Source of the DNA: an uncultured Planctomycetota bacterium
Lineage (GTDB): Bacteria; Planctomycetota; Planctomycetia; Gemmatales; Gemmataceae
Length of the DNA stretch: 64,000 bases
NCBI GenBank assembly: GCA_963849325.1
Contig: CAWKHF010000002.1
Location: 672,001-736,000 of the forward strand
Direction: 5' to 3'
The notes below the pieces were generated by a model that was not told the DNA's origin, did no database searches, and was given only the letters and a program-made list of their open reading frames with translations. This document shows, one piece after another, positions 42,432 through 64,000 of this stretch (the stretch's first letter is position 1; every line of letters begins with the position of its first letter). Both the position numbers and the translations under genes were made by a program.

Positions 42432-43436
42432 ATGAATCCCGTCACGCTGGCCGTACCGCCGTTGGCCGCCTCGGAGCTGGACCCGTTCGCTCCGATTGCG
42501 GCCGATCTGGAAGAAGTCGAGCACATCCTGGCCCTCGTCCTGAAGAACAAGCATCCCCGCGTCGCCGAGGTTGTCGATCACGTCCACCACTATCGCGGCA
42601 AACGGCTGCGGCCGATGCTGCTGCTCTTGACGGCCCGCGCCTGCGGTCGGGTCACTCCGGCCCATCACGTCCTCGGCGCCGTGGTCGAGATGATCCACAC
42701 GGCCACACTGGTCCATGACGACGTGCTCGACGGTGCTCGCGTCCGCCGCCGCGTGGCGACGGTCAACGCCGTTTGGGGCGTGCAGACGAGCGTCCTGCTC
42801 GGCGATTACCTGTTCACGCACGCCTTCCACCTGGCCAGCACGCTCGACGACGTTCGCGCCTGCCGGCTGATCGGCGCCGCCACCGATCGCGTCTGCGAGG
42901 GCGAACTGTGTCAGGTGCTGCAGCGCGGCAACCTGGAGCTGAGCGAGGCGGAATACTTCGACATCATCGACGGCAAGACGGCGGAGTTGACCGCGTGCTG
43001 CTGTCACCTGGGCGCACTGTACAGCGGCGCCGCGCCGGACGTCGTGCAGGCGTTGTCTCGTTATGGGCGCTGCGTGGGACTGGCGTTCCAGATCGCCGAC
43101 GATCTGCTCGACCTGGTCGGCGAGGAGAAGACGACCGGCAAATCGCTGGGCACCGACGTGGAGCAGCAGAAGTTGACACTGCCGCTGATTCACCTGCTCC
43201 GCCACGGTGGCGATGGGTTGGCCGCGCGGGTGCGTCAGATATTGGGCAGTCCCGGCAACCACAAGCGCGAGGCGCTGCGGCCGTATCTCGTCGAAGGCGG
43301 CGCCGTGGCGTATGCTCGCCAACGAGCCGAGGAACTGGCCGCGCAGGCCCGCGCCGAGCTGGTTGGTCTGCCGCCGTCGCTGTGTCGCTCCGTGCTCGAA
43401 GCCGTGACGGAGCGCGTCGTCCACCGCAATGCCTGA
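42432..43436 (+). CDS. Long-chain trans-polyprenyl diphosphate synthase (IspB/HepT-like)
   Basis: GKRLRP, HTATLVHDDVLD..RR, LLGDYL, GKTA, AFQIADDLLD. Confidence 0.93.
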   Translation: MNPVTLAVPPLAASELDPFAPIAADLEEVEHILALVLKNKHPRVAEVVDHVHHYRGKRLRPMLLLLTARACGRVTPAHHVLGAVVEMIHTATLVHDDVLDGARVRRRVATVNAVWGVQTSVLLGDYLFTHAFHLASTLDDVRACRLIGAATDRVCEGELCQVLQRGNLELSEAEYFDIIDGKTAELTACCCHLGALYSGAAPDVVQALSRYGRCVGLAFQIADDLLDLVGEEKTTGKSLGTDVEQQKLTLPLIHLLRHGGDGLAARVRQILGSPGNHKREALRPYLVEGGAVAYARQRAEELAAQARAELVGLPPSLCRSVLEAVTERVVHRNA

Positions 43437-51710: not shown

Positions 51711-53000
51711 TTAGTAACGATACATGAGGCTGACACTCAACCAATGTGCCTGCGCTCCCACCTGGCTATTATTAAAGTCTCCCCCCACGAGGGCGCTCTG
51801 TCCAACCGCCTGTTCATTGCCGAACGAGTATTGGTAGGCGAGGTTGACGGCCCAATTATTCCACTGCTTGCCATAACCTGCCGAAACGGCTTGATTCAAG
51901 ATCGCTGGAATGTAGGGAGTTAGCGTCTGGTTGGGGACCGGCTGAGGATGATAAATATAACCGAGACGTACAACCTGAGTCTGACCAAAATAGTATTCGT
52001 AGCCCAGACGAACCGAGACGCTGCTATACCAGTTCAGGGGAAAGTTGTCCCGAATCGTGGGTCCGGCCAGCATGGGGATAAGGGGGTTGCTGCTGTCGCT
52101 CAGCCGCAGGCCGACATTATTGAAGGCGTCCGACCAGTCAAACCACATGACTTGGAGCATGGCGCGGTGCTGCCCCTCCTCGCCGAAGGCGTGGACGAAC
52201 CCTCCCGACAACGAACGAGGCAAGGTGATATCGACATCGGCGTCGAAACGACTGGAAATCGTTACGGGCAGGACCTTCTCGACATCGACCGAGGCGTTGC
52301 CATGCAAATTATAGCGCGTCTGGGCGATGTAAGACAGGCCGAGCATCGTCCGTTCGCCAAGAAGATATTGCAGACCCACCGACCAGGCGGGGGTGACACC
52401 GGTGGCATGGAGGTCGAGCAGGGTCGAGACCCCGCGCAAGGTGCCGCTCTGGACAACAAAAGGACCATCGAGCTGGGCGTAGGTCACTCCCAGCCCACAG
52501 GTCCCACCCACCGAAAGCCGATCCGTGACTCGATATGCGAACCCCGGGAGGATGTCGGTAACGGCGGCAAACGACTTGTACTGCTGCGCTCCCAGAAGCG
52601 GGCTATTGATTTGCCAGTCGGTGCCGAAGCCCGCCGGGGCGAACACCCCTATGCCGTAGGCGAAATCGCCGCCCTCACTCCGTTGAATGAGCGAGAAAAA
52701 CGGCAGGGCCAACGGCGTCTCGCCGCTGTGGACGTGACTATTCTGCGGACTGCTGTAATCCAGATCGGTGAACAGTCCGTCCACGCCCACTTCGTAGAGA
52801 CCCTTGCCCTCGACATTGGCCATGCCGGCGGGGTTGTCGTAGAGGATGACGCCGTTGTCGAAGCTGGCCACGTTGTTGCCGCCGCGACCGATGGGGACCG
52901 CGCCGATGCCATCGCGCTCGACGCCATCGGCCCACGCCGGCCTGACGCTGAGAGCGAGCAGGCATCCGAGGCCCAAGCATAGACCGATCCTGGATTTCAT
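51711..53000 (-). CDS. FadL/OmpP1/TodX-family outer-membrane channel for hydrophobic molecules
   Basis: Signal peptide (..PAWA), hatch G..GRGG...DN..LYDNPAGM, GIGVFAPAGFGTDW, amphipathic strands, C-terminal aromatic YRY. Confidence 0.88.
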   Translation of the reverse strand: MKSRIGLCLGLGCLLALSVRPAWADGVERDGIGAVPIGRGGNNVASFDNGVILYDNPAGMANVEGKGLYEVGVDGLFTDLDYSSPQNSHVHSGETPLALPFFSLIQRSEGGDFAYGIGVFAPAGFGTDWQINSPLLGAQQYKSFAAVTDILPGFAYRVTDRLSVGGTCGLGVTYAQLDGPFVVQSGTLRGVSTLLDLHATGVTPAWSVGLQYLLGERTMLGLSYIAQTRYNLHGNASVDVEKVLPVTISSRFDADVDITLPRSLSGGFVHAFGEEGQHRAMLQVMWFDWSDAFNNVGLRLSDSSNPLIPMLAGPTIRDNFPLNWYSSVSVRLGYEYYFGQTQVVRLGYIYHPQPVPNQTLTPYIPAILNQAVSAGYGKQWNNWAVNLAYQYSFGNEQAVGQSALVGGDFNNSQVGAQAHWLSVSLMYRY

Positions 53001-53256
53001 GGCTGGATCCCTGACGTCCTTGTCCCGTGGAGCCATTGCACTGCGAACCATCCTCCGCCAACGAGTTCGTCCTTTTCCGATTGTACCGTCTCTACCTCAC
53101 GTATCGAATGGAGGACCGCGCCGCTGGATTTCTCTCATCTCCTAATCGTCATTCCTCCTACATCCGGCCCAGCAGAAACGGAGAAGTCGATGGAATCGGT
53201 AAGGTCATCCCATGCGTAGGTTGCCCAAGATACCCAGTTGATTTCGGACGAGGAGG

Positions 53257-54177
53257 TCAGCGCAGGACATGCGGCAAAGGGAAATGGACTTCTTCCCGGC
53301 GCAGGGTGCGTTCCTCGACCTCGGCATCGAATCGCGCACGCAGCCAGTCCAGACATTGCGTCACCAGGAATTCGGGCGCGCTGGCCCCTGCCGTAAGCAC
53401 CACGGTCTCTGCCCCGTCGAACCAGGCCGGGTCGATGTCGCGGACGTCGTCGATCAGGTAGGAGGACGCTCCATATTCGCGGGCCACCTCCGTCAGACGG
53501 AGAGAATTGGAGCTATTGCGGCTGCCGACCACCAGGACGAGGTCGGCCTCGCGGGCCAGCGTTCGCAACACTTCTTGGCGGTTCTGGGTGGCGTAGCAAA
53601 TGTCTTCGTTGGCCGGAGCGACGATGTGGGGGAATCGGCGCCGCAGGGCCTCGATCACGCGGTTGGCGTCATCGACGCTCAGGGTGGTCTGGGTGAGATA
53701 AGCGACCGGGGTCGTCTCGGAGAGGGGCAGACTCCTCACGTCCTCCGGCGTTTCCACCAGATGAATACGGCCGGGAGCTTCGCCAAGTACGCCAACAATC
53801 TCGTCGTGCCCGGCGTGACCGATGAGAACGAGAGTGTAGCCCTGCTGCGCCAGGCGCACGGCCTGAAGATGGACCTTCGCCACCAGGGGGCAAGTGGCAT
53901 CGATGGCTCGCAGTTGTCTCCGCCGGGCCGCGTCGCGGACCTCCGGCGCGACGCCATGCGCGCTGTACAACAGGGTGGCCCCCGATGGCACGTCCTCGAC
54001 GGAATCGACGAAGACCACTCCGCGCCGGCGGAACCCTTCGACCAAATGCCGATTGTGGACGATCTCGTGAAAGACGTACAACGGCGGCCCGAACAGCTCG
54101 AGCGCTCGTTCCAGACTTTTCACCGCCATCACCACGCCGGCACAGAAGCCGTGAGGGTTGGCCAAGAGGATCTTCAT
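53257..54177 (-). CDS. ispH: 4-hydroxy-3-methylbut-2-enyl diphosphate reductase
   Basis: GFCAGV, EIVHN, SAHG, DATCPLV.KVH, GHDE, ICYATQNRQ, SSNS, TAGASAPE. Confidence 0.96.
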   Translation of the reverse strand: MKILLANPHGFCAGVVMAVKSLERALELFGPPLYVFHEIVHNRHLVEGFRRRGVVFVDSVEDVPSGATLLYSAHGVAPEVRDAARRRQLRAIDATCPLVAKVHLQAVRLAQQGYTLVLIGHAGHDEIVGVLGEAPGRIHLVETPEDVRSLPLSETTPVAYLTQTTLSVDDANRVIEALRRRFPHIVAPANEDICYATQNRQEVLRTLAREADLVLVVGSRNSSNSLRLTEVAREYGASSYLIDDVRDIDPAWFDGAETVVLTAGASAPEFLVTQCLDWLRARFDAEVEERTLRREEVHFPLPHVLR

Positions 54178-54204
54178 CGCTCGCGTCTCCTTCAGCAAGA
54201 AATC

Positions 54205-54322
54205 AACCACGGATGAACACAGATAAACACAGATAAGAGAAAAAACAAAAAGACTTGGATTGGCTTTTTCTCTTATACTTCTTCTCTTTCTTATCCGTGT
54301 TTATCTGCGTTCATCCGTGGTT
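54205..54322. repeat. Palindromic element AACCACGGAT(G)..ACAC.GAT with AT-rich spacer
   Basis: aaccacggatgaacacagataaacacagataa ... ttatccgtgtttatctgcgttcatccgtggtt; sister copy at 58119. Confidence 0.85.
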
Positions 54323-55357
54323 CATTTTTCCGGCAAGTTGCTTGGACGGTTCCACTGCCTGTTGGGCCAGTCCTTTCCGCAGGGCCAGGAAGCGCTCTTC
54401 GCAACGGCAGAACGCCGCGACGACGGCCGGGTCGAAATGACCGCCGGACTCTCGGATGATAATGGAGCGGGCCACCTCATGGCTGAACGCCTCTTTGTAG
54501 ACCCGTTTGGACGTGAGAGCGTCGTAGACATCGGCCAGGGCGGCAATCCGTCCACAGAGGGGGATCTCCAGACCGGACTTGCCGCGCGGATAGCCCGTCC
54601 CATCGAAGTGTTCGTGATGCGTCAGGGCGATGTCGCGCGCCATGCGCAGGAACTTGCGCGCGGATGTTGGCGCAACGCGGCGTGGAGGGTACGGGCCCCG
54701 ATCAGCGTATGCTTTTTCATGATGGCGAATTCGCTGTCACTGAGTTGGCCCGGCTTGAGCAAGATGTTATCGGGGATGCCAACCTTGCCGATGTCGTGCA
54801 GGGGGCTGACCTGGTAGATCAGGCGGATGAACTCGGGAGTAATCTGGCCGGCGAAGTCCGGTTGCCCGGACAGATCCTGGGCGAGGATGCGGCAGTAGTT
54901 GCGCATGCGCTCCAGATGTGCCCCGGTCTCCCAATCGCGCGACTCGGCCAATTTGGCCAGGGCGAACAGGGCCAGATCGCGCGTCTCCAGCGACAGGATG
55001 CGCTCGCCGGCGCCGATGCGCACACGCAGCTCGGCGGGGTTGAACGGCTTGATGATGAAGTCGTCGGCTCCGGCCGACAATCCTTCGAACGATGTCCGTA
55101 TCCTGATCGCGGGCCGTCAAGAGGATGAAATAGATGTAGGAGGGAAAGTCGCCGGCGCGAATCTCGCGGCACAGTTGCAAACCGTCCATCTCCGGCATGC
55201 TCCAGTCGGAGATGACCATCTGGTACGTCCCGCCGCGCAAGATCTCCAGGGCCTCGCGTCCGTCACAAGCGAGCCGGACTTTATACCCGCTCTCCTTGAG
55301 CAGGTAGCTCAGCAGTCCGCGAATAATGTCATCATCATCGACAACCAGGATGCGCAT
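54311..55357 (-). CDS. Response regulator with HD-GYP c-di-GMP phosphodiesterase (RpfG-like), frameshifts near 55085 and 54650
   Basis: ILVVDDD, ISDWSMPEMDG, DDFIIKPF; ETGAHLER, LHDIGKVGIPD, HHEHFDGTGYP, ADVYDAL. Confidence 0.92.
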
Positions 55358-55390: not shown

Positions 55391-58091
55391 TTAGCCTACC
55401 GGGGCCGGCGTTACGGCCCGCGGATCGAACTGGAGAATCCGCTGGCATTCCTCGCGCACGGCCGAGAGGCCGTGCCGGGCTCCGACCAGATCGGAAGCCT
55501 TGGCGAGCATCTCCAATCGGGCCGCCGCGGCCTGGAGACCCTCGGCCGAAAGGCTGGCCGCCGCCCCTTTGAGGCTGTGCGCCAGCAGGGCGAGCTTGCT
55601 GCTTTCTCCCAGAGCGAGGCTCTGCTCAATCTGCCGCAGGTCTTCCGGCAGCCGTTTCTGGAACTTGGCCACCGTCCGTTCCAGCACGTTGGGGTTGCCC
55701 AGGCAGCGCCGGAGCAGATCCTTCAGGTTTAACGGTACGCTGCTCAACGTCCTCGTTTCGCCGCCGGAATGGGCCGGCTGCCCGGTCGCCGTGGTCGTCT
55801 CGGTGGCGGACAGATGGACCTCCACCGCCTGGATCACCTGCTCCGGATAGAACGGCTTACTCAAGTAACCCGTCATCCCGGCGCGCAGACAGGCTTCCCG
55901 ATCGCCGGTCAGGGCGTTGGCCGTCAGGGCGATGATGGGCAGCGGGCTAGTCCTCCGCCCAGCCAGAAGCCCGGCCTGTTCCTTCTCCCGGATTAACTGG
56001 GTCGCTTGCAATCCGTCCATCTCCGGCATATGGCAATCCATGAGCACCAGGTCGTAGGCTTGTTCCAGCAGCGCCTGCACGGCGAGCTTGCCGTTGCCGA
56101 CGATTTCGCAATCGAAGTGGGCATCGCGGAGGATCTCCGCCACCAGATCCTGGTTGACCTCGTTGTCCTCGGCCAGGAGAATGCGTGCCCGCTTTCGACC
56201 GGCTTCGGCCAACGGCCGGCGTATGCCAGTTGATGGACTCTCCGCCAGCCGGCTGACGCCGACGGTTCCCCCTCCGCCCTCCACTCGATCGCCGTTGGCG
56301 GTCAGACCCTTGAGAACAACCTCCAGCAGATGCGATTGCTGGACCGGCTTGGTGAGGCAATCGGCGAAGCCGGCCGCCTCCAGGCGGCCCTCATCGAGCG
56401 GTTCGCCCAGATAGCTCAGCAATAACAGCGTCGTTCGAGCCAGGGCGGCATCGGCCTTGATGGCCCGAGCCAGCTGTTCGCCATCCATCCCCGGCATCTG
56501 GAAGTCGAGAATGGCCAGCCGGAACGGCTCGCCGGCACGGACGGCCTCCCGCAAGGCCGACAGGGCACTGGACCCGTCGGCCACGGTTTGCACCTTGAAG
56601 CCCCAAGCCCGCAGCTGCTGCTCCACGATCTCGCGGCAGGTCGCATTGTCGTCCACGACCAGGATGCGCAGTGCCGCGCACGTTCGAGGCGAGGATACGA
56701 GCTTCCTTGGTCCCGCGCGGCGGCTTTTCCAGGACCATGGTGCACCAGAAGGTCGAACCTCGTCCGGGTACGCTCTCCACCCCGATTTGCCCACCCATCA
56801 GGGTGCAGAGGTGCTTGGAGATGGCCAGGCCCAGGCCGGTGCCCCCGTAACGCCGTGTCGTCGAGGAATCCACCTGCGAGAAGGAATGGAAGAGCCGATC
56901 CATCCGCTCGGGAGCGATGCCGATGCCGGTATCGGTGACGCGGAACCGCACTGTCAGATTTCGCTCGCTCTGCTGCTCCAGCGTCGCGCGGATGACGACC
57001 TCGCCCCGCTCCGTGAATTTGACGGCGTTGCTGGCCAGGTTCGCCAGGACCTGCTGGAGCCGGTTGGGATCGCCGCGCAGCCGCGGCGGGATGTCCATCT
57101 GGACCGAACAGGCCAGTTCCAACCCTTTGCGGCGCGCCTGGGGAGTGACCAGCTCCGCCACGCTACCGACGACGTGGCGAAAGTCGAAGTCGATGGTTTC
57201 CAGTTCCAGTTTGCCCGCTTCGATCTTGGAGAAGTCGAGGATGTCGTTGATCAGACGCAACAGAACCTCGGCGGAGCTGTGGGCGGTGCGGGCGTAGCGC
57301 CGCTGCTGGCCATCCAGGTTGGTGTTCAAGAGCAGATGGGTCATTCCCAGCACGCCGTTGAGCGGCGTGCGCAGCTCGTGGGACATGGTGGCCAGGAACT
57401 GGCTCTTGGCCTGGTTGGCCGACTCGGCGCTCTCGCGGGCCGACTCCAGCAGCGACGACTTGCGGGCCAGTTCCGCCGCCTGCGCTTCCAGGGCGTTCTT
57501 GGCCTGCAACAACTCGACGTTATAGCGCTGCAATTCCTCCTCGGCCCGCGTCAGCTCCAGTACCTTCCGCTCCAGCATTTCCAGCGAGTGCTGAACCGAC
57601 TTGCCCAGCTCGACCTTTTCGGCCATCGATTGGGCCAACTGCAAGACCTCGATGGCGTCGAACGGCTTTTTCAGGATCAAGAGGTTGCCGGTCTTGCCCA
57701 GCTGGATGGCGATCTCTTTCCAGTCGTAATCGGAGAAGGCGGTGCAGACGACGCAGGGCAATCCCGGCAGGTGCTTCCACAGTCGCTTGATGGTCTGGAT
57801 GCCGTCGATGCCGGGCGGCATGCGGACGTCCACGAAGGCCATGTAATAGGGTTGGCCCTGGCGAGCGGCCTCCACGGCCAGGGCGATGCCCTCCTCGCCC
57901 TGGTACGCCGAGTCGATCTGGACTTGCAGCTGGACATCCGGCTTGAGGGCCGTCCCGTTGTGCGAGCCGAACAGGTCCGCCTCCAGGTCGTCCAGCTCGG
58001 CCTTGCGGCCGGCGGAATCGAACACCTTGCGGAAGTCCGCATGGATGTCCTTGTTATCGTCAATGATCAGGATTCGGTTGACACAGGTCAT
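55391..58091 (-). CDS. Cytoplasmic hybrid histidine kinase REC-HisKA-HATPase-REC-REC-Hpt (frameshift near 56680)
   Basis: [60 protein letters not shown]. Confidence 0.92.
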
Positions 58092-58118: not shown

Positions 58119-58239
58119 AACCACGGATGACACGGATAAAAGAGACAAAGAAATAATCAATTATGTCAGTGTGACTGGCCAACCCCTTCTTTCACGTCTT
58201 TTATCCGTGTCATCCGTATTATCCGTGTCATCCGTGGTT
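58119..58239. repeat. Palindromic element, sister of 54205-54322
   Basis: aaccacggatgacacggataa ... ttatccgtgtcatccgtattatccgtgtcatccgtggtt. Confidence 0.85.
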
Positions 58240-61200
58240 TGTATTTCCTTCTCGGCCGTTTCTTCCAGGAGCGGGAACTCAATGGCGAAGGTGGCGCCGG
58301 TGCCGGGTCCGTCGCTGTGTACCTGGATGGTCCCGCCCATCTCGGTCATGGCGTTGGCGGCCGAGTGCAGGCCGAAGCCATTGCCGTAGCGCTTGGTGGT
58401 AAAGCCGTAGTTGAAAATCTTCTGCAGGTTCTCGCGCTCGATACCTCGGCCGCTGTCGCCGACGGAGATGCGGGCGCGCGACCGGCCGACGCCCCGAATC
58501 CGAACCGTCAAAGCCCGGTGGCCCACTCTCTGCGACTTGATCGACTCGACCGCGTTCTTGACCAGGTTATCGAGTACCTGCACCAGCTTTAACCGCTCCA
58601 GCTTGGCCTCCGGCAGCGACTCGAAATCGCGGACGACCTGGATGTCATGCTTGGCGAACGAATGCGTGTGCATGACCAGAACGTCGCCGACCAGCCCCTG
58701 AAGATCGACCGCTTCGCGGATGGAAACTTTGCGGGCATAGTTCTGCTGCGCGCTGATGATGTTGCGGATGTCTTGCAGTTTCTCGCGCAAGAAGTCCATC
58801 TCGGTGAGCATCTGGCGCTGCTCGGTCAAGAGGGTGTCGGAGAGCTTGGTCAAGTACTCCGGTAACTTCTTGCCGCGCGGATCGGTCTGGAGGAAGGACG
58901 CCAGGTTGTCGCCCTGGGCCTGGAGCAGGGCGGCGGCCTTGGCCGGGCCTCGGAAGTTCCATCCCTGCAGCTGACTGTTGACGGTGGTCACCGAGATGTT
59001 GACGCTGTTGAGGACGTTGCCGACGTTGTGCAAAACGCCGGTGGCGATCTCGGTCATGCCGGCGCGGTGGGCGATGTCCACCATGCGGGTCTGCGTCGTC
59101 TGCAGGTCGCGGACGGCGCTTTCCAGTTCGGCATTGCGCTGATCCAGCTCCTGGTGCAGGCGACGCAGCTTGAGCAGCGAGCGGACCCGCGCCCGCAGCT
59201 CTTCGGCGTCGAACGGCTTGACCAGGTAATCGTCGGCGCCGCCGTCGAGTCCCTCGATCTTCATGGCGCGCTCGGCCTTGGCCGTGAGCATGACGAAGGG
59301 GATGTGAGCGGTCGCCGGCTCGGCCCTCATGCGCCGGCAGAAGGCGTAGCCGTCCACGCGCGGCATCATCACGTCGGAGATGATGAGCGCCGGCAGTTCA
59401 CGCAGGGCCACGTCGATGCCCTCGGCCCCATCGCAGGCGACCACGGTGCGGTACTGCGACGCGAGGATGCTGCACACCATGGTCCGCAGCTCCGGCGTGT
59501 CGTCCACAACCAGAATCATGGGGGCATCCACGGGGGCCGTCGAAGGAGCATTCACCAGGGCCGGTGGGGGTTCGCAGGCGATCAGGTCGGCAAAGCGCGT
59601 GCGGAAGATATTGAACTCCATCTTGGAGTCGCCCCCCGAGAAGGGCCGCGCCATCGCCGGCGCGACGCCGGTCCCCCTCGGCTCGGCCAGGACCGGGACC
59701 GAGTTCATCGGAATGCGGAACCAGAAATGCGACCCTCCGCCCGCCTCGCTCTCGACCTGAATTCGTCCGCCGTGCAACTCGATCAGTTCTTTCGCCAGGG
59801 CCAACCCCAGGCCGGTGCCGGGGAACTCGCGCGAGGAGGAGCCGTCGATCTGCACGAAGCGCTCGAAGATGCGAGCCTGATCGGCCTTGGCGATGCCGAT
59901 GCCGGTGTCGCGCACCGAGACCCGCACCTCGTCGTCTTCCCGAGCCGTCTCCAGGGTGATCGTTCCCCCCTCGGGGGTAAATTTGATGGCGTTGGACAGC
60001 AGGTTGCTGATGACGGTATCTAGCTTTTCCTCATCCGCCCGGATTTCCGTCGTCGAGGCGTCGGCGAGGACGCGCAGCTGCACCTTCCGCCGCGTCGCCA
60101 GGGGCTGGGCCGCGAGCGTCAGCTTGTGGATCAACTGATTCAGGTCCATCGCCGCCGGAAGCAGCTTCAGACGCCCGGCCTCCAGCTTGGAGAACTCCAG
60201 GAGGCGATTGATTAGCTCCAGCAGGCGCCGGCCGTTGATGTTCACCACGTTGAGCATGTACGAGAACGTCAGCCGGCAGCTGCGGTCCATACTGCTCCAG
60301 GGTCTGCTCCACCGGCGACAGGATCATCGTCAGCGGCGTGCGCAGCTCGTGGCTGACATTGGAGAAAAACTCGGTTTTCAGGCGATCGTGCTCGCGCAGC
60401 TGGCGCAAGGAGTGCTGAAGCTTGCGCCGGCTGCGGGACAGTTGGCGAGTTCGGCGGCGTACTTTCTTCTCCAGGTTGGTGTTCAGATCGCGGATGGTCT
60501 GGGCATTTTGATCGAGCTTCTCCACCATGGCGTTGAACTGACGGGCGAGGATGTCAATCTCGTCATTGCCCGTGGGCTGGACGCGCTCCGTCAGGCAACC
60601 CTGCTCGACGCGCTGCATCCCTTGCAGCAACCGGCCGACGCGCGCGGCCACCGACCGGGCCAGGACGGTGGCGAAGACGATGCCCACGCTGACGGCCGCG
60701 ATCGTGATGAAGGTGGTGTGATTGCGCAGGCTGGCGACGGCCTCGGCCTGGTTTTCCGGGTACTCAACGAGGTCCGCCGCCCGCTGCCGGGCCATGGTGC
60801 CGATCATCAGGGCGGTGGTCAGGATGATGAGGGCGAAGCAAAGGTTCAGCCGCCCGCGCAGACGACTCTGCGGCAGGGCCGGGTAATCGATGGCGATGCC
60901 GCTGTCCAGAAGGTGATGGATGACCGGCTGAAGGCACAGTTCGATGACGAAGAAGGTGGTCATCAGGGCCATGGTGATGCCCATGAAGACCGCCAGGGTG
61001 ATGTTGGTCATGACGGTCCACGAGGCGCCGTCCATCAGTCGGAGGGCGATCAGCACCGGCACCAGGGTGACACTGGGCACCAGCCAGGCCTCGTTTTTGT
61101 GATGGCGCGCGGGAAATACCACCGCCTCGCGGCCGGCCCGGGCGGCCAGGACCACCTCCACCGGCTCGTCGCCCTGGAGGTGGGCCAGGACGCGCCGGAG

Positions 61201-61482
61201 GTGCCGCGTCTCCCACATCGAGGCCAGCACCGACGACAGTACGGCCACGACCACCACGATCCCCGCCAGGACGTAGAAATGGTGGCGGACCTGGTCGGGC
61301 ATGCGCAGCGTCAGGTTGACGTAGTAGACCACCAGCAAGCCGCCGACCGAACCGGACAGGCGGGTGGCAATCATCATCAGAAGGATGTAGTGCGGACCCA
61401 ACCACCGCACCAGGCGGAGCAAAGGACCGTGCGCCATGCGGCGGGAGTCGGCGCTCAGAGATGCGGCAACGCGGTCGCCCAT
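58161..61482 (-). CDS. Membrane sensor kinase: multi-TM (about 6), HAMP, HisKA-HATPase, REC, second HisKA-HATPase (frameshift near 60275)
   Basis: Hydrophobic N-terminal segments; DEIDILARQFNAM (HAMP); [48 protein letters not shown]. Confidence 0.9.
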
Positions 61483-61528
61483 GTAACTCGCCAATGAATC
61501 CGTGCTCAGGCCAAGGGATGACGCTATT

Positions 61529-61582
61529 CGAGCCGCGACCGTCAGGGAGCGGGAACAACCGCTCCCTGACGGTCGCGGCTCG
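61529..61582. repeat. REP-like palindrome, sister of 20527
   Basis: cgagccgcgaccgtcagggagcgg ... ccgctccctgacggtcgcggctcg. Confidence 0.82.
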
Positions 61583-61599
61583 GTTGGGTTCGCCGGCCC

Positions 61600-62682
61600 T
61601 TATTTGTAGCCCCGGCTGCCCAGGTGCAGGCAAATCAGCCGTTGCAGTCCGAGGACGAATGGACCCAGGTCGAGGGATTTCACCCGCGGCCTCTTGGCGA
61701 GAATCGCTCGACGATGTTCTTGCCACTGGCGCAGGAAATGGGCCTCGTGTTGTCCCGCAACGATGACCGACCGGATCTCTTCCCGATCACCTTGCCGGAG
61801 TTGTCCCAGGCTAAGGCTCCCTTCCATCAGGGCGCGCGCATACACCCCGCTGGTGAAATCGCCCTCGCCGAGTTCGCGTTCCCACGTGGTCGTCAGGTTG
61901 CCGATCCGCCCCATGCACTGCCCATGCCAGGCCGCTTCCCGCAGGTGTCCGACCTCGGCGGGATCCAAATCGGGCGAACACGTGAGGTCCAGGGTGGCCG
62001 AGACCATCATGTGCATGTTGTGGGGCAAGTAAAGGTCGTGCTCCGTCACGTTGAGCAGCGCGGGATTGCTATTAAGCAGGTGCGAATAGCGCATCGTGTT
62101 GAACAGCTGCAAGTAATCGTAACGGAGCAACGAGGCATAGGCGCCGTAGCACGGAAAACGCCGCGCACGGGCGTGAATCTCGTGCCATAGCTCGAAAGTG
62201 AACTGCGCGTAGTCCTGTTCCTCTTGGGAGAATCGGCGCAGGTCGGGGGTGGGGTCTCCCAGAGGGAGGCGGAGATAGCATTCCAGCAGCTCTTCATCGC
62301 CTTTCTGGTCGGCCACGTCATCCACCAGCACGTCCAGCATGATGCCGAGGACTTTCGTATCGCACACCTCGTCGCGCCATTCCGGAGCGACGCTGGGGAG
62401 CATGGTGACTTCGACGCCCTGGCGGGCCCAACGCCATAAATAATGATTTCGCCGGCCGACCCGAGCGTAGCCATCGGCCCAGTGCTCTAGGGCCGGGCTG
62501 AGGCGCTTGGTCAGGACCGGCGCGATCTCGCGCTGGATGTCTTCGGGAGACGGGAAAAAGGTCTCCGGCACCGAGACTCGGCCTTCCCCGACCCACTCGG
62601 GAGGACCGAACCTGTCATCGACCGGAGCAGCCGGTCGCACGGCCGGATTGTGCTGCTCCTCGCGAGCCAGGGCAATGGACAT
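61600..62682 (-). CDS. Class I isoprenoid/terpene synthase-like protein
   Basis: Asp-rich DVLVDDVAD (DDxxD) and, about 140 aa later, RIGNLTTTWERE resembling the NSE/DTE Mg-binding motif; helical, 360 aa. Confidence 0.7.
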   Translation of the reverse strand: MSIALAREEQHNPAVRPAAPVDDRFGPPEWVGEGRVSVPETFFPSPEDIQREIAPVLTKRLSPALEHWADGYARVGRRNHYLWRWARQGVEVTMLPSVAPEWRDEVCDTKVLGIMLDVLVDDVADQKGDEELLECYLRLPLGDPTPDLRRFSQEEQDYAQFTFELWHEIHARARRFPCYGAYASLLRYDYLQLFNTMRYSHLLNSNPALLNVTEHDLYLPHNMHMMVSATLDLTCSPDLDPAEVGHLREAAWHGQCMGRIGNLTTTWERELGEGDFTSGVYARALMEGSLSLGQLRQGDREEIRSVIVAGQHEAHFLRQWQEHRRAILAKRPRVKSLDLGPFVLGLQRLICLHLGSRGYK

Positions 62683-62775
62683 GGTTGCTTCACCTTAAAA
62701 GGTAGTTTTTGTCTCTCTATAGAATGTCCCAGAGTACAGGCGAGACGCCTGCGCTCCGGGACACGACACCATCCG

Positions 62776-63309
62776 TCACACGGATATAGCGGTGAAATGT
62801 ACCTGCGTATCCGATGCGAATTGCGGGCCAAGGGCGAGGAGACTCGAGCTGGCGAACCCGCCCATCGGGTTTCCAATGCTGCCGGTGGACCCGGAAATCG
62901 CTCCGTTGCTGCCCACGAGGAGAGCACCACTGGGAGGGACGATCCCCTGGATGAACGAGAAATCCAAGGTGGTCACCGTCGCCAGCGGCTGCTGCCCGAG
63001 CGCTCCGGGGAAGAAGGTGAAGGTCGCCCGCCCCATCGTCCCGACCATCATTCCATCCAGGAGCAACGGCGTCAGCGCTTCCTGATACTGGCCGATGACC
63101 GGACCCAGGGGTTGTGTTCCTAAATAGATGTTCCCACCCAGGGACGACGGCTGACCTCGTTGGTCAAATGTTATCCCTGTGCCGACGATGTTGATGTCGA
63201 AGGGGACCGACAGGGGTTGCCCCGAAGGGAGATCGCGCGCCTCCAGGGCTTCGAGTCCCAGACGAACACTCCGCCGATTGTGGTCTTGACGCCGGGGACT
63301 GAGAGTCAT
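62776..63309 (-). CDS. Small secreted beta-rich protein with planctomycete export motif
   Basis: MTLSPRR..LGLEALEARDLPS followed by about 150 aa of hydrophobic beta strands. Confidence 0.7.
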   Translation of the reverse strand: MTLSPRRQDHNRRSVRLGLEALEARDLPSGQPLSVPFDINIVGTGITFDQRGQPSSLGGNIYLGTQPLGPVIGQYQEALTPLLLDGMMVGTMGRATFTFFPGALGQQPLATVTTLDFSFIQGIVPPSGALLVGSNGAISGSTGSIGNPMGGFASSSLLALGPQFASDTQVHFTAISV

Positions 63310-63533
63310 GATACACTCCAACAAGTTGGCGAGTTGCGTCGCATGAGCGCCCCGAGGGCAGTCACGGGAGAGAAAGCTCGCCGGTTTGGAAGCCGCTTCT
63401 TGGCTGGTTCGCAAGAAGTCTAGTTTGCAAGATCCGAAAAGGCAAATAGCGCCGTCTCCCGCGCGATGGCTGTCAAGGTTCTCTTCGTCGAAGCACGCGA
63501 GAAGAAGGTCGGGAAGGAATTCTTGTAGGGAAT

Positions 63534-63562
63534 TTGCTTTATTGACCGGGCAGACCTACATT
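63534..63562 (+). promoter_or_regulatory. Possible sigma70 promoter of ribB
   Basis: TTGCTT-17 nt-TACATT. Confidence 0.35.
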
Positions 63563-63643
63563 TCCTTGACTCCTATCCCTTTAGAGATGGCTCAGCTCCC
63601 TTATGGAGAGCGATCCGAACAACCCCATAGCGAGAACCTGCTC

Positions 63644-64000
63644 ATGATCCGTCGCTTTTCGTCCGTGGAAGAGGTGGTCCTGGCCTTAACGGCTGGCCGT
63701 GCCGCCATCGTGCTCGATTCGGAAGAACGCGAGAACGAAGGGGATTTCCTCGCCGCCGCGGAAAAAGTCACTCCCGAGCTGATTCATTTCATGCTTCGCC
63801 GGGGGTGCGGCCAGCTGTGTGTTCCCGTCGCCCGCGAGATCGCTTCGCGGCTGGAACTGGAACCGATCGGCACCAACATCAACTCGGCCGGCACGGCGTT
63901 CGCGGTGCCCCTGGACCATCGCGGCTGCCGGACGGGCATCAGCCCCGCCGAGCGCGTGCTTACCATTCAAGAGATGCTCAATCCCTTCAGCCGTGCGGCC
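63644..64000 (+). CDS. ribB: 3,4-dihydroxy-2-butanone-4-phosphate synthase (RibB or RibBA), truncated by the window end
   Basis: Not in the ORF track; manual translation MIRRFSSVEE..IVLDSEERENEGDFLAAAEKVTPELIHFM..GQLCVP..TAFAV..TGISPAER. Confidence 0.9.
   Translation, partial: MIRRFSSVEEVVLALTAGRAAIVLDSEERENEGDFLAAAEKVTPELIHFMLRRGCGQLCVPVAREIASRLELEPIGTNINSAGTAFAVPLDHRGCRTGISPAERVLTIQEMLNPFSRAA

Follow-up and report, generated by a model that had tools for sequence, protein, structure and literature searches.

Bacterial class I terpene synthases (PF19086) are the closest described structural relatives of a 360-residue protein, designated P0001. Its gene is found on the minus strand of a 64,000-nucleotide stretch of DNA from an uncultured Planctomycetota bacterium of the Gemmataceae (contig CAWKHF010000002.1, positions 672,001 to 736,000); the whole of this stretch is called the window. 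P0001 has the same single α-domain fold as LrdC (6oh6), selinadiene synthase (4okm) and epi-isozizaene synthase (3kb9) (Z 19.8–20.6), with a DDxxD motif and an N/S-T/E triad at the same helix ends and spacing, and with the Arg that precedes the final Glu of the second motif. In contrast to these enzymes, it falls below the Pfam and NCBIfam thresholds, has Leu instead of Asp at one position of the second motif, belongs to a family with PHNMH and HLGSRGxK motifs and no evident effector triad or RY pair, and is tied to DXS fusions, a sensor kinase, IspH and FadL rather than to a prenyl synthase. It is proposed, with a probability of about 0.6, that P0001 is an active Mg-dependent enzyme that ionises a prenyl diphosphate, that it is fed by dedicated paralogues of the methylerythritol phosphate (MEP) pathway, and that its product is possibly small and maybe a signal.

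Other users of the fold are less close. Trans-prenyl diphosphate synthases (PF00348) have the same superfold (Z 16–18.5) and share the first DDxxD. They are recognised by PF00348 and by a first and a second aspartate-rich motif (FARM and SARM), whereas P0001 has a single DDxxD that is not followed by RR, N..T..E as its second motif and no match to PF00348. The N-prenyltransferase DabA (6vkz) uses the terpene-synthase fold for prenyl transfer and superimposes with a Z of 19.6, but no sequence similarity to it was detected in PDB searches with P0001 or with profiles A1 and A2. Bifunctional "assembly-line" terpene synthases are reportedly fusions of a prenyltransferase to a cyclase. They likewise join a terpene-synthase domain to an upstream isoprenoid enzyme, but the partner here is DXS, six steps upstream and usually catalytically dead. 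Plant isoprene synthase (3n0g) and hemiterpene synthases share the class I fold and appear in the Foldseek list, although P0001 has no β domain and the relationship is limited to the fold. A module of DXS, IspH and a synthase without elongation nevertheless resembles what an enzyme using dimethylallyl diphosphate (DMAPP), such as a hemiterpene synthase, would need. For plants, the accessible part of one study links the ratio of DMAPP to isopentenyl diphosphate (IPP) produced by HDR/IspH to volatile isoprenoid emission (PMC7067565). The accessible part of a 2018 review states that a bacterial isoprene-forming enzyme was then undiscovered and that plant isoprene synthase had no bacterial homologues (PMC5864225).

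Non-canonical classes ID to IF are defined, in the accessible part of one article, by motifs that replace DDxxD and NSE, all examples being from actinomycetes; class IB has DYLDNLxD, and class ID (PeuTPS type) has D(N/D), ND and RxxKD (PMC11234867). P0001 resembles class IB, ID, IE and IF enzymes in having a class I-like fold that is missed by standard sequence models. It differs from them, as they are described there, in that its family keeps both canonical motifs, so that it does not belong to class ID.

A literature search, with most subscription journals outside it, returned nothing relevant on fusions of DXS with a terpene synthase, on terpene synthases of planctomycetes or on an isoprene synthase from bacteria. 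The fold is of a known kind; as far as could be found, there is no description of the family, of its fusions to DXS or dead DXS, or of the way it is inherited together with a private sensor kinase, IspH and FadL. Because the standalone proteins are annotated as "hypothetical" and one named fusion as plain DXS, this synthase-fold clade and its fusion to an MEP enzyme are invisible in databases. The fusion partner is the flux-controlling enzyme of the MEP pathway. Should P0001 be an enzyme, it would give access to terpenoid chemistry in a phylum whose sampled genomes yielded no canonical synthase: PF19086 gave no match at 1e-8 in 301 genomes of the phylum, which is weak evidence as the control likewise matched nothing. 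In the window's own genome, PF19086 gave no match at 0.01.

Fold and metal site

The gene and its motifs were located as follows, motif positions being translations of the sub-ranges.

61600..62682, minus strand: synthase-like gene P0001, open reading frame (ORF) from ATG to a TAA/TGA stop, 360 residues
62308-62322, minus strand: DDVAD, first metal-binding motif, residues 121–125
61873-61899, minus strand: NLTTTWERE, NSE/DTE-type second metal-binding motif, residues 262–270
62011-62025, minus strand: PHNMH family motif, residues 220–224, between helix 212–216 and helix 224–234
61603-61626, minus strand: HLGSRGYK, conserved C-terminus

The ORF call agrees exactly with the extent given in an earlier note on this DNA. 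That note had read the protein as an atypical class I terpene synthase-like enzyme carrying DDVAD and a variant second motif, and had remarked on the missing RR after DDxxD and the missing WxxxxxRY tail; both motifs were found by translation, and both absences hold. It had also described the second motif as having Asp replaced by Leu. The second position is indeed Leu, but this position is presumably not among the three metal ligands of class I synthases, and the predicted ligand positions of P0001 are N262, T266 and E270.

An AlphaFold2 model of P0001, built from a 35-sequence alignment, is all-helical, with a mean pLDDT (predicted local distance difference test) of 86.1 and a pTM (predicted template modelling score) of 0.85. 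Only residues 1–32 are disordered by prediction, and they differ among homologues. VIA-align, a search independent of Foldseek and the clearer of the two, returned 114 chains at Z ≥ 8, with terpene synthases on top. The best match was LrdC (Z 20.6, r.m.s.d. 3.3, 275 residues aligned), followed by a pimarane-type synthase (Z 20.2) and selinadiene synthase (Z 20.1). The best eight chains (Z 20.6 to 19.8, 257–286 residues aligned) are all class I terpene synthases. Synthases continue to rank 21, with DabA among them (275 residues aligned), and the first chain-elongating prenyl-diphosphate synthase appears at Z 18.5. In a Foldseek search of the PDB, tolypothrichol synthase (9kgb) came first with an E-value of 2.4e-4, followed by hydropyrene synthase and abietadiene synthase; only five matches reached E ≤ 1e-3, with TM (template modelling) scores of 0.49–0.58. 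The all-α isoprenoid synthase fold was thus recovered. The refuting condition named in the earlier note, a different predicted fold, did not apply, and its class I terpene synthase-like interpretation holds as regards fold and metal site.

In the model, DDxxD forms the C-terminal end of helix 100–125 and N..T..E that of helix 241–272, which are the predicted counterparts of the helix D and helix H positions. By homology, the two motifs would face one cavity. Profile A2, from a broad alignment of 45 sequences down to ~30% identity, places both motifs in register with their counterparts in AtTPS18, DDxxD and N-D-x-x-T-x-x-x-E, at a non-significant E-value of 0.53; in this alignment the spacing from DDxxD to the second motif is 141 residues in P0001 and 144 in AtTPS18. 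Where canonical enzymes have an RY pair, the C-terminus of P0001 reads R357-G-Y359-K360 (HLGSRGxK). This HLGSRGYK end may replace the basic C-terminal residues of canonical synthases.

Family and residue conservation

A word-indexed search of 90% clusters gave 514 homologues at E ≤ 1e-3, and an exhaustive HMMER search of 50%-identity representatives gave 653 matches at E ≤ 1e-3, 283 of them at E ≤ 1e-30. The closest homologues are 53–78% identical across 83–100% of the query, and those with names are each a "hypothetical protein" from metagenome-assembled genomes (MAGs) of Planctomycetes, Pirellulales or Gemmataceae.

Conservation was examined on 269 fetched proteins aligned to the family profile, of which 259 span both motifs. 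The pattern D-D-x-x-D plus (N/D)-x3-(S/T)-x3-E is kept in 252 of the 259, the other seven deviating at one or more positions. Given the 514 and 653 homologues, this is far beyond chance. D121, D122 and D125 are each Asp in 261 of 263 sequences, and the second motif is as strongly conserved (N262 and T266 in 263/265, E270 in 264/265). Near-invariance extends to R78 (254/255), D189 (267/268), Q192 (264/268), Y218 (264/267), R248 (263/265), R269 (264/265) and D275 (265/265). At the C-terminus, position 357 is Arg in 218 of 259 sequences and position 360 is Lys in 187 of 188. PHNMH is invariant among the close family and varies in distant members. In the broad alignment A2, D121, D122, D125, R269, E270 and D275 remain invariant. 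These alignments indicate strong purifying selection on both metal-binding motifs.

The sequence bridge to canonical synthases is thin but consistent. Weak, sub-threshold PF19086 matches were found in 10 of 35 close relatives (best E 0.0017). The gathering thresholds of PF19086 (Terpene_syn_C_2) and PF03936 are not reached by P0001; that of PF19086 is passed by one protein only. A distant paralogue in genome G008 (L021:9569-10690) passes it, with 29.6 against 23.7 bits, and this protein also matches the family profile at 2.9e-52. Searching the PDB with profile A2 gave two marginal matches, AtTPS18 and 3a4l (E 0.13). The latter involves a C-terminal helical region and was judged spurious.

Sensor kinase and neighbourhood across loci

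One genome per species was scanned, and the 52 loci obtained all lie in MAGs of Planctomycetota (Pirellulales, Planctomycetaceae, Phycisphaerae). Neighbouring genes were ORF-called and clustered, and cluster representatives were identified with Pfam and NCBIfam. Families were then counted in six-frame ORFs of the 52 loci and the window (n = 53). The counts are minima, since contig ends cut many loci.

The most constant partner is a histidine kinase, searched for with its N-terminal 250-residue membrane domain only. This family-specific sensor domain was found in 46 of the 53 loci. In 45 cases it lies downstream and on the strand of the synthase-like gene, which it follows either directly or after a reductase-like gene and IspH. 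Three of the seven loci without it have 2.4 kb or less of downstream sequence. Ten reference sensor domains are all mutually homologous (E ≤ 1e-23). The domain matches no Pfam family, and its model (pLDDT 81.6) gave generic helical-hairpin structural matches only (Z ≤ 10.2). Of the 301 genomes sampled from the phylum, only G000 and G285 have it, both times beside the synthase-like gene. As the genomes are related and few, the link shows co-inheritance and not mechanism. A complex prediction with residues 40–360 of the synthase-like protein and residues 270–780 (HAMP to REC) of the kinase scored 0.00, which is evidence neither way.

The other families were counted as follows.

IspH: 32/53 loci
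FadL/TodX: 27/53 loci
HD-GYP domain (query, the HD domain alone): 25/53 loci
RibB, divergently upstream: 22/53 loci
Legionella-OMP-like porin: 16/53 loci
DXS or DXS-like domain fused to the synthase-like gene: 13/53 loci
Geranylgeranyl-reductase-like flavoenzyme: 11/53 loci
308-residue protein with a weak, degenerate GGDEF domain: 7/53 loci
P450: 2/53 loci

The reductase-like enzyme scored 123–150 bits against TIGR02032, under the cut-off of 158.8. No PF00348 prenyl synthase or other chain-elongation enzyme was found among the scanned neighbours. A conserved 315-residue upstream gene was rejected as an antisense ORF over ribB arising from greedy gene calling. In G128, a 1693-residue Ser/Thr-kinase-AAA-TPR-GAF-HisKA-HATPase protein (L019:9697-14778) takes the place of the HAMP kinase, and a REC-HD-GYP regulator comes next; this lineage retains the output of the signalling and has a different input module. 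At L054:5054-8494, the ORF of the HAMP hybrid kinase is joined to a C-terminal piece matching the last third of IspH (PF02401 positions 184–266), which is either a frameshift gene-call artefact or a remnant.

Fusions to DXS

The N-terminal stretches of the 150 best representatives were classed with phmmer against reference proteins. There were 55 DXS or DXS-like stretches, 56 shorter than 120 residues, 37 unclassified extensions, one RibB and one with two PilZ domains. When the DXS-like region itself served as a profile, 64 of the 150 fell into the DXS or DXS-like class. Pfam and NCBIfam confirmed a complete DXS in the P0124 and L052 fusions; the N-terminus of L052 is a genuine DXS, scoring 707.9 bits on TIGR00204 (cut-off 466), whereas L060 retains a remnant only (91 bits). 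Among 13 aligned fusions, L052, L057 and P0124 keep the GDG...NDN motif, which binds thiamine diphosphate (ThDP) in DXS, along with the glutamate of AEQH and the stretch GADGPTHHG. Of five genomes that carry an active fusion, four also encode a separate full-length DXS and three have a second copy of IspH. The RibB fusion, P0121, joins RibB to the synthase-like domain on a single metagenomic contig of 2.5 kb.

Directly upstream of active DXS fusions, a protein of ~308 residues is encoded with start/stop overlap (L055:6284-7207, L059:6221-7147, L064:2349-3278, L052:6206-7174 and others). Its GGDEF matches are weak (17.5–24.7 bits). By eye, the RxxD site is intact and GGDEF has turned into GPDRL. 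From this combination, the protein may be a receptor for cyclic di-GMP (c-di-GMP).

Phylogeny and distant paralogues

A quick maximum-likelihood tree was made with 54 synthase-like domains, leaving out four loci with in-frame stops, and rooted on the paralogues of G008 and G176, on a long root branch. P0001 groups with the protein of a same-genus MAG (support 99). Both belong to a clade of 35 members (support 99) from Pirellulales and Planctomycetaceae, mostly standalone and including the dead-DXS fusions L060 and L071. A separate clade of 10 members (support 96) holds seven of the eight active-DXS fusions. The ancestor may have been fused. The cluster IspH of the active-fusion clade is of a different, shorter type (28–31% identical), so the link to IspH spans two IspH lineages. 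The RibB link is limited to one clade.

The low-GC genomes G008 and G176 each have five family matches. One distant paralogue (L023:8439-9404) lies in an operon with a P450, an FAD oxidoreductase and a glutathione S-transferase (order P450-synthase-FAD oxidoreductase-GST), others in G008 and G176 are fused to or followed by a CMAS-like S-adenosylmethionine (SAM) methyltransferase (L024:7793-9661, L025:8999-10816), and a DUF116-polyprenyl synthase is found 2 kb from a tandem pair. These are classical biosynthetic settings, and for this reason catalysis is favoured as the ancestral function of the wider family. The pairing of methyltransferase and paralogue resembles the methyltransferase-synthase pairs that make methylated terpenes.

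Function of the synthase-like protein

In the proposed reaction, D121/D122/D125 and N262/T266/E270 would hold three Mg2+ ions that bind the diphosphate of an allylic prenyl diphosphate. The bound substrate would be ionised, and the carbocation would be quenched or undergo cyclisation in a pocket whose lining consists of aromatic and unusually polar residues that do not vary in the family. Supply would come from the module, specific to Planctomycetota, with its own copies of the first (DXS) and last (IspH) enzymes of the MEP pathway; some clades add a P450 or the geranylgeranyl-reductase-like flavoenzyme, and an outer-membrane channel of the FadL/TodX family is often present. As no chain-elongating enzyme is among the scanned neighbours, a short substrate is plausible, either DMAPP or 4-hydroxy-3-methylbut-2-enyl diphosphate (HMBPP) or geranyl diphosphate (GPP). 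The hydrophobic product might be sensed as a signal, or its synthesis might be under c-di-GMP-linked control, through the HAMP kinase, the phosphorelay and HD-GYP. That the kinase reads the product is the weakest part of the proposal, suggested by co-inheritance only. If true, small-molecule signalling would gain a new kind of unit, a synthase inherited together with a private sensor kinase, a phosphorelay and a c-di-GMP phosphodiesterase. The conserved metal ligands, the homology to synthases, the tailoring genes, the active DXS and IspH copies and the channel for hydrophobic compounds argue for an enzyme.

A number of observations weigh against this proposal. P0001 matched no Pfam or NCBIfam family even at E ≤ 10, and PDB sequence searches with P0001 and with profile A1 gave no match. 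Some 46 residues before N262, where the sensor Arg of canonical enzymes is presumably expected, there is no Arg and the sequence reads E214-H215-D216-x-Y218-x-PHNMH; residues 211–220 are also the least confident part of the model core (pLDDT 65). Many invariant pocket candidates are polar (Q192, N195, H215, H221, N222, D275), an unusual feature in a cavity that forms hydrocarbons. The family is patchy, being present in 5 of 301 genomes of the phylum and in two of six other genomes of the genus, and every locus comes from a MAG. Nine of the 13 aligned fusions have lost all the ThDP and catalytic motifs of DXS, and one more is without the N-terminal half. The one PilZ fusion and the neighbouring degenerate GGDEF protein point to regulation. 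Lastly, no counterpart is evident in the family for the Arg-Asp-Gly effector triad, reported as conserved in class I synthases in the accessible part of the article cited above (PMC11234867).

Several of these points suit a ligand sensor, the rival that survives best although it is held to be unlikely. The fold would bind IPP, DMAPP or HMBPP at the Mg-diphosphate site and signal to the kinase/c-di-GMP circuit, or to a (pseudo-)DXS partner, tuning flux. The synthase-like motifs are invariant in all 13 aligned fusions while most of the fused DXS-like domains are dead, and because of this loss a regulatory scaffold fits better than precursor supply. The very tight pairing with a dedicated kinase, the HD-GYP regulators at nearly half of the loci (25/53), the PilZ fusion and the degenerate GGDEF neighbour, the polar invariant residues and the lack of a chain-elongation enzyme in the module are all consistent with sensing, and binding alone would require the motifs to be conserved too. 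However, reductase-like and P450 tailoring genes adjoin the synthase-like gene, the distant paralogues are found in classical biosynthetic operons, and the dedicated active DXS and IspH copies together with the FadL channel suggest a mass flow to a product. We know of no sensor built on the terpene-synthase fold. If P0001 were one, the fold would for the first time be seen to gauge the levels of isoprenoid precursors, and the dead-DXS fusions would represent a novel mode of MEP pathway regulation.

A more specific version of the enzyme proposal is that P0001 is the first bacterial hemiterpene-type synthase (isoprene or methylbutenol-like), acting in a terpenoid autoinducer circuit coupled to c-di-GMP. 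DXS and IspH would push carbon to DMAPP, from which the synthase-like enzyme would release a small volatile. This would cross the outer membrane by FadL/TodX and be read by the HAMP kinase, with relay through Hpt and REC domains to the HD-GYP phosphodiesterase. This version, taken as a whole, is regarded as a long shot.

The cation could also be passed to a polar co-substrate, in the manner of DabA, the acceptor being perhaps related to the 1-deoxy-ketose phosphates from the DXS and RibB paralogues. DabA ranks with the best structural matches (Z 19.6), a second substrate could be bound by the many invariant polar residues, and by our own reasoning 1-deoxyxylulose 5-phosphate (DXP) and 3,4-dihydroxy-2-butanone 4-phosphate (DHBP) are chemically alike. 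A divergent RibB paralogue is encoded at 22 of 53 loci, with a second copy in the genome, and there is one RibB fusion. Yet the RibB link is confined to one clade, that fusion rests on one short contig, and no acceptor was indicated by any test. Most DXS-like fusion partners would be unable to make DXP, for which reason the 1-deoxy-ketose-phosphate idea is reduced to a minor rival, and such a transferase appears very doubtful. The probability left over from the enzyme, sensor and transferase readings goes to other chemistry. A chance ORF or a decayed gene, which the frameshifts in neighbouring genes of the assembly might suggest, is refuted by the unbroken full-length alignment to homologues of 53–78% identity, the conserved motifs and the confident fold.

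Neighbouring genes in the window

The full module set is present on one strand within the window. On the minus strand, the synthase-like gene is followed by a 105-nt spacer, the HAMP hybrid kinase, the REC-REC-Hpt kinase, the REC/HD-GYP regulator, IspH and FadL/TodX.

58161..61494, minus strand: partner histidine kinase, with multi-helix membrane sensor, HAMP, HisKA, HATPase, REC and a second GHKL domain
55391..58091, minus strand: second hybrid kinase, REC-HisKA-HATPase then REC-REC-Hpt, in two overlapping ORFs
54622..55357, minus strand: response regulator, REC and HD-GYP-type HD domain, in two frames
53257..54210, minus strand: IspH/LytB paralogue, the second copy of the genome, with three Cys and His/Glu residues conserved
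51711..53051, minus strand: FadL/TodX-family outer-membrane channel for hydrophobic compounds
62776..63414, minus strand: small conserved protein just upstream of the synthase-like gene, sharing 61% identity with the ORF found at the corresponding position of a same-genus MAG
63386..64000, plus strand: RibB (DHBP synthase) paralogue, divergent, without the RibA part, running off the window

A single frameshift near 60270-60274 interrupts the partner kinase, which is intact (1092 residues) in the same-genus MAG; residues 2–410 of the intact orthologue map to 61500..60274 and residues 412–1074 to 60269..58269 in another frame. The second hybrid kinase is a single protein of 931 residues in L029. 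The DXS of the window's genome is encoded elsewhere and is readable in three frames. As the cause of the frameshifts, systematic indel errors of the assembly seem more likely than real pseudogenes.

The cluster IspH is 63% identical to the other copy of the genome, and a second ribB locus is found on another contig (G000:C12:567958-568484), in a 401-residue frame that is itself frameshifted and is probably the housekeeping ribBA. The cluster IspH and RibB are therefore paralogues. The small upstream protein has a LEALEARDLPSG-type N-terminal motif and no family match; its true start is probably an internal Met, and its membership of the module is uncertain. The genes past FadL look unrelated (BNR, PKD, WD40). 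A polyprenyl diphosphate synthase (PF00348, 231 bits) is encoded 18 kb away, at 42432-43436 on the plus strand, by MoaC and SCO1-like genes, and is probably unrelated to the module.

A promoter scan of 61300-63600 gave no promoter-like sites, and terminator-like sites were no commoner than in shuffled sequences. A look-up of sequencing runs returned one soil DNA run (share 0.08) and no RNA run among those listed. The spacer between the synthase-like gene and the kinase includes a perfect inverted repeat of 24 bp, at 61529-61582, whose loop is 6 nt long (RNA fold −68 kcal/mol, z −7.6). No T-run follows it. The repeat has 87 matches in the genome over both strands, corresponding to roughly half as many sites, and is a dispersed palindrome that resembles REP (repetitive extragenic palindromic) elements and is not specific to this locus.

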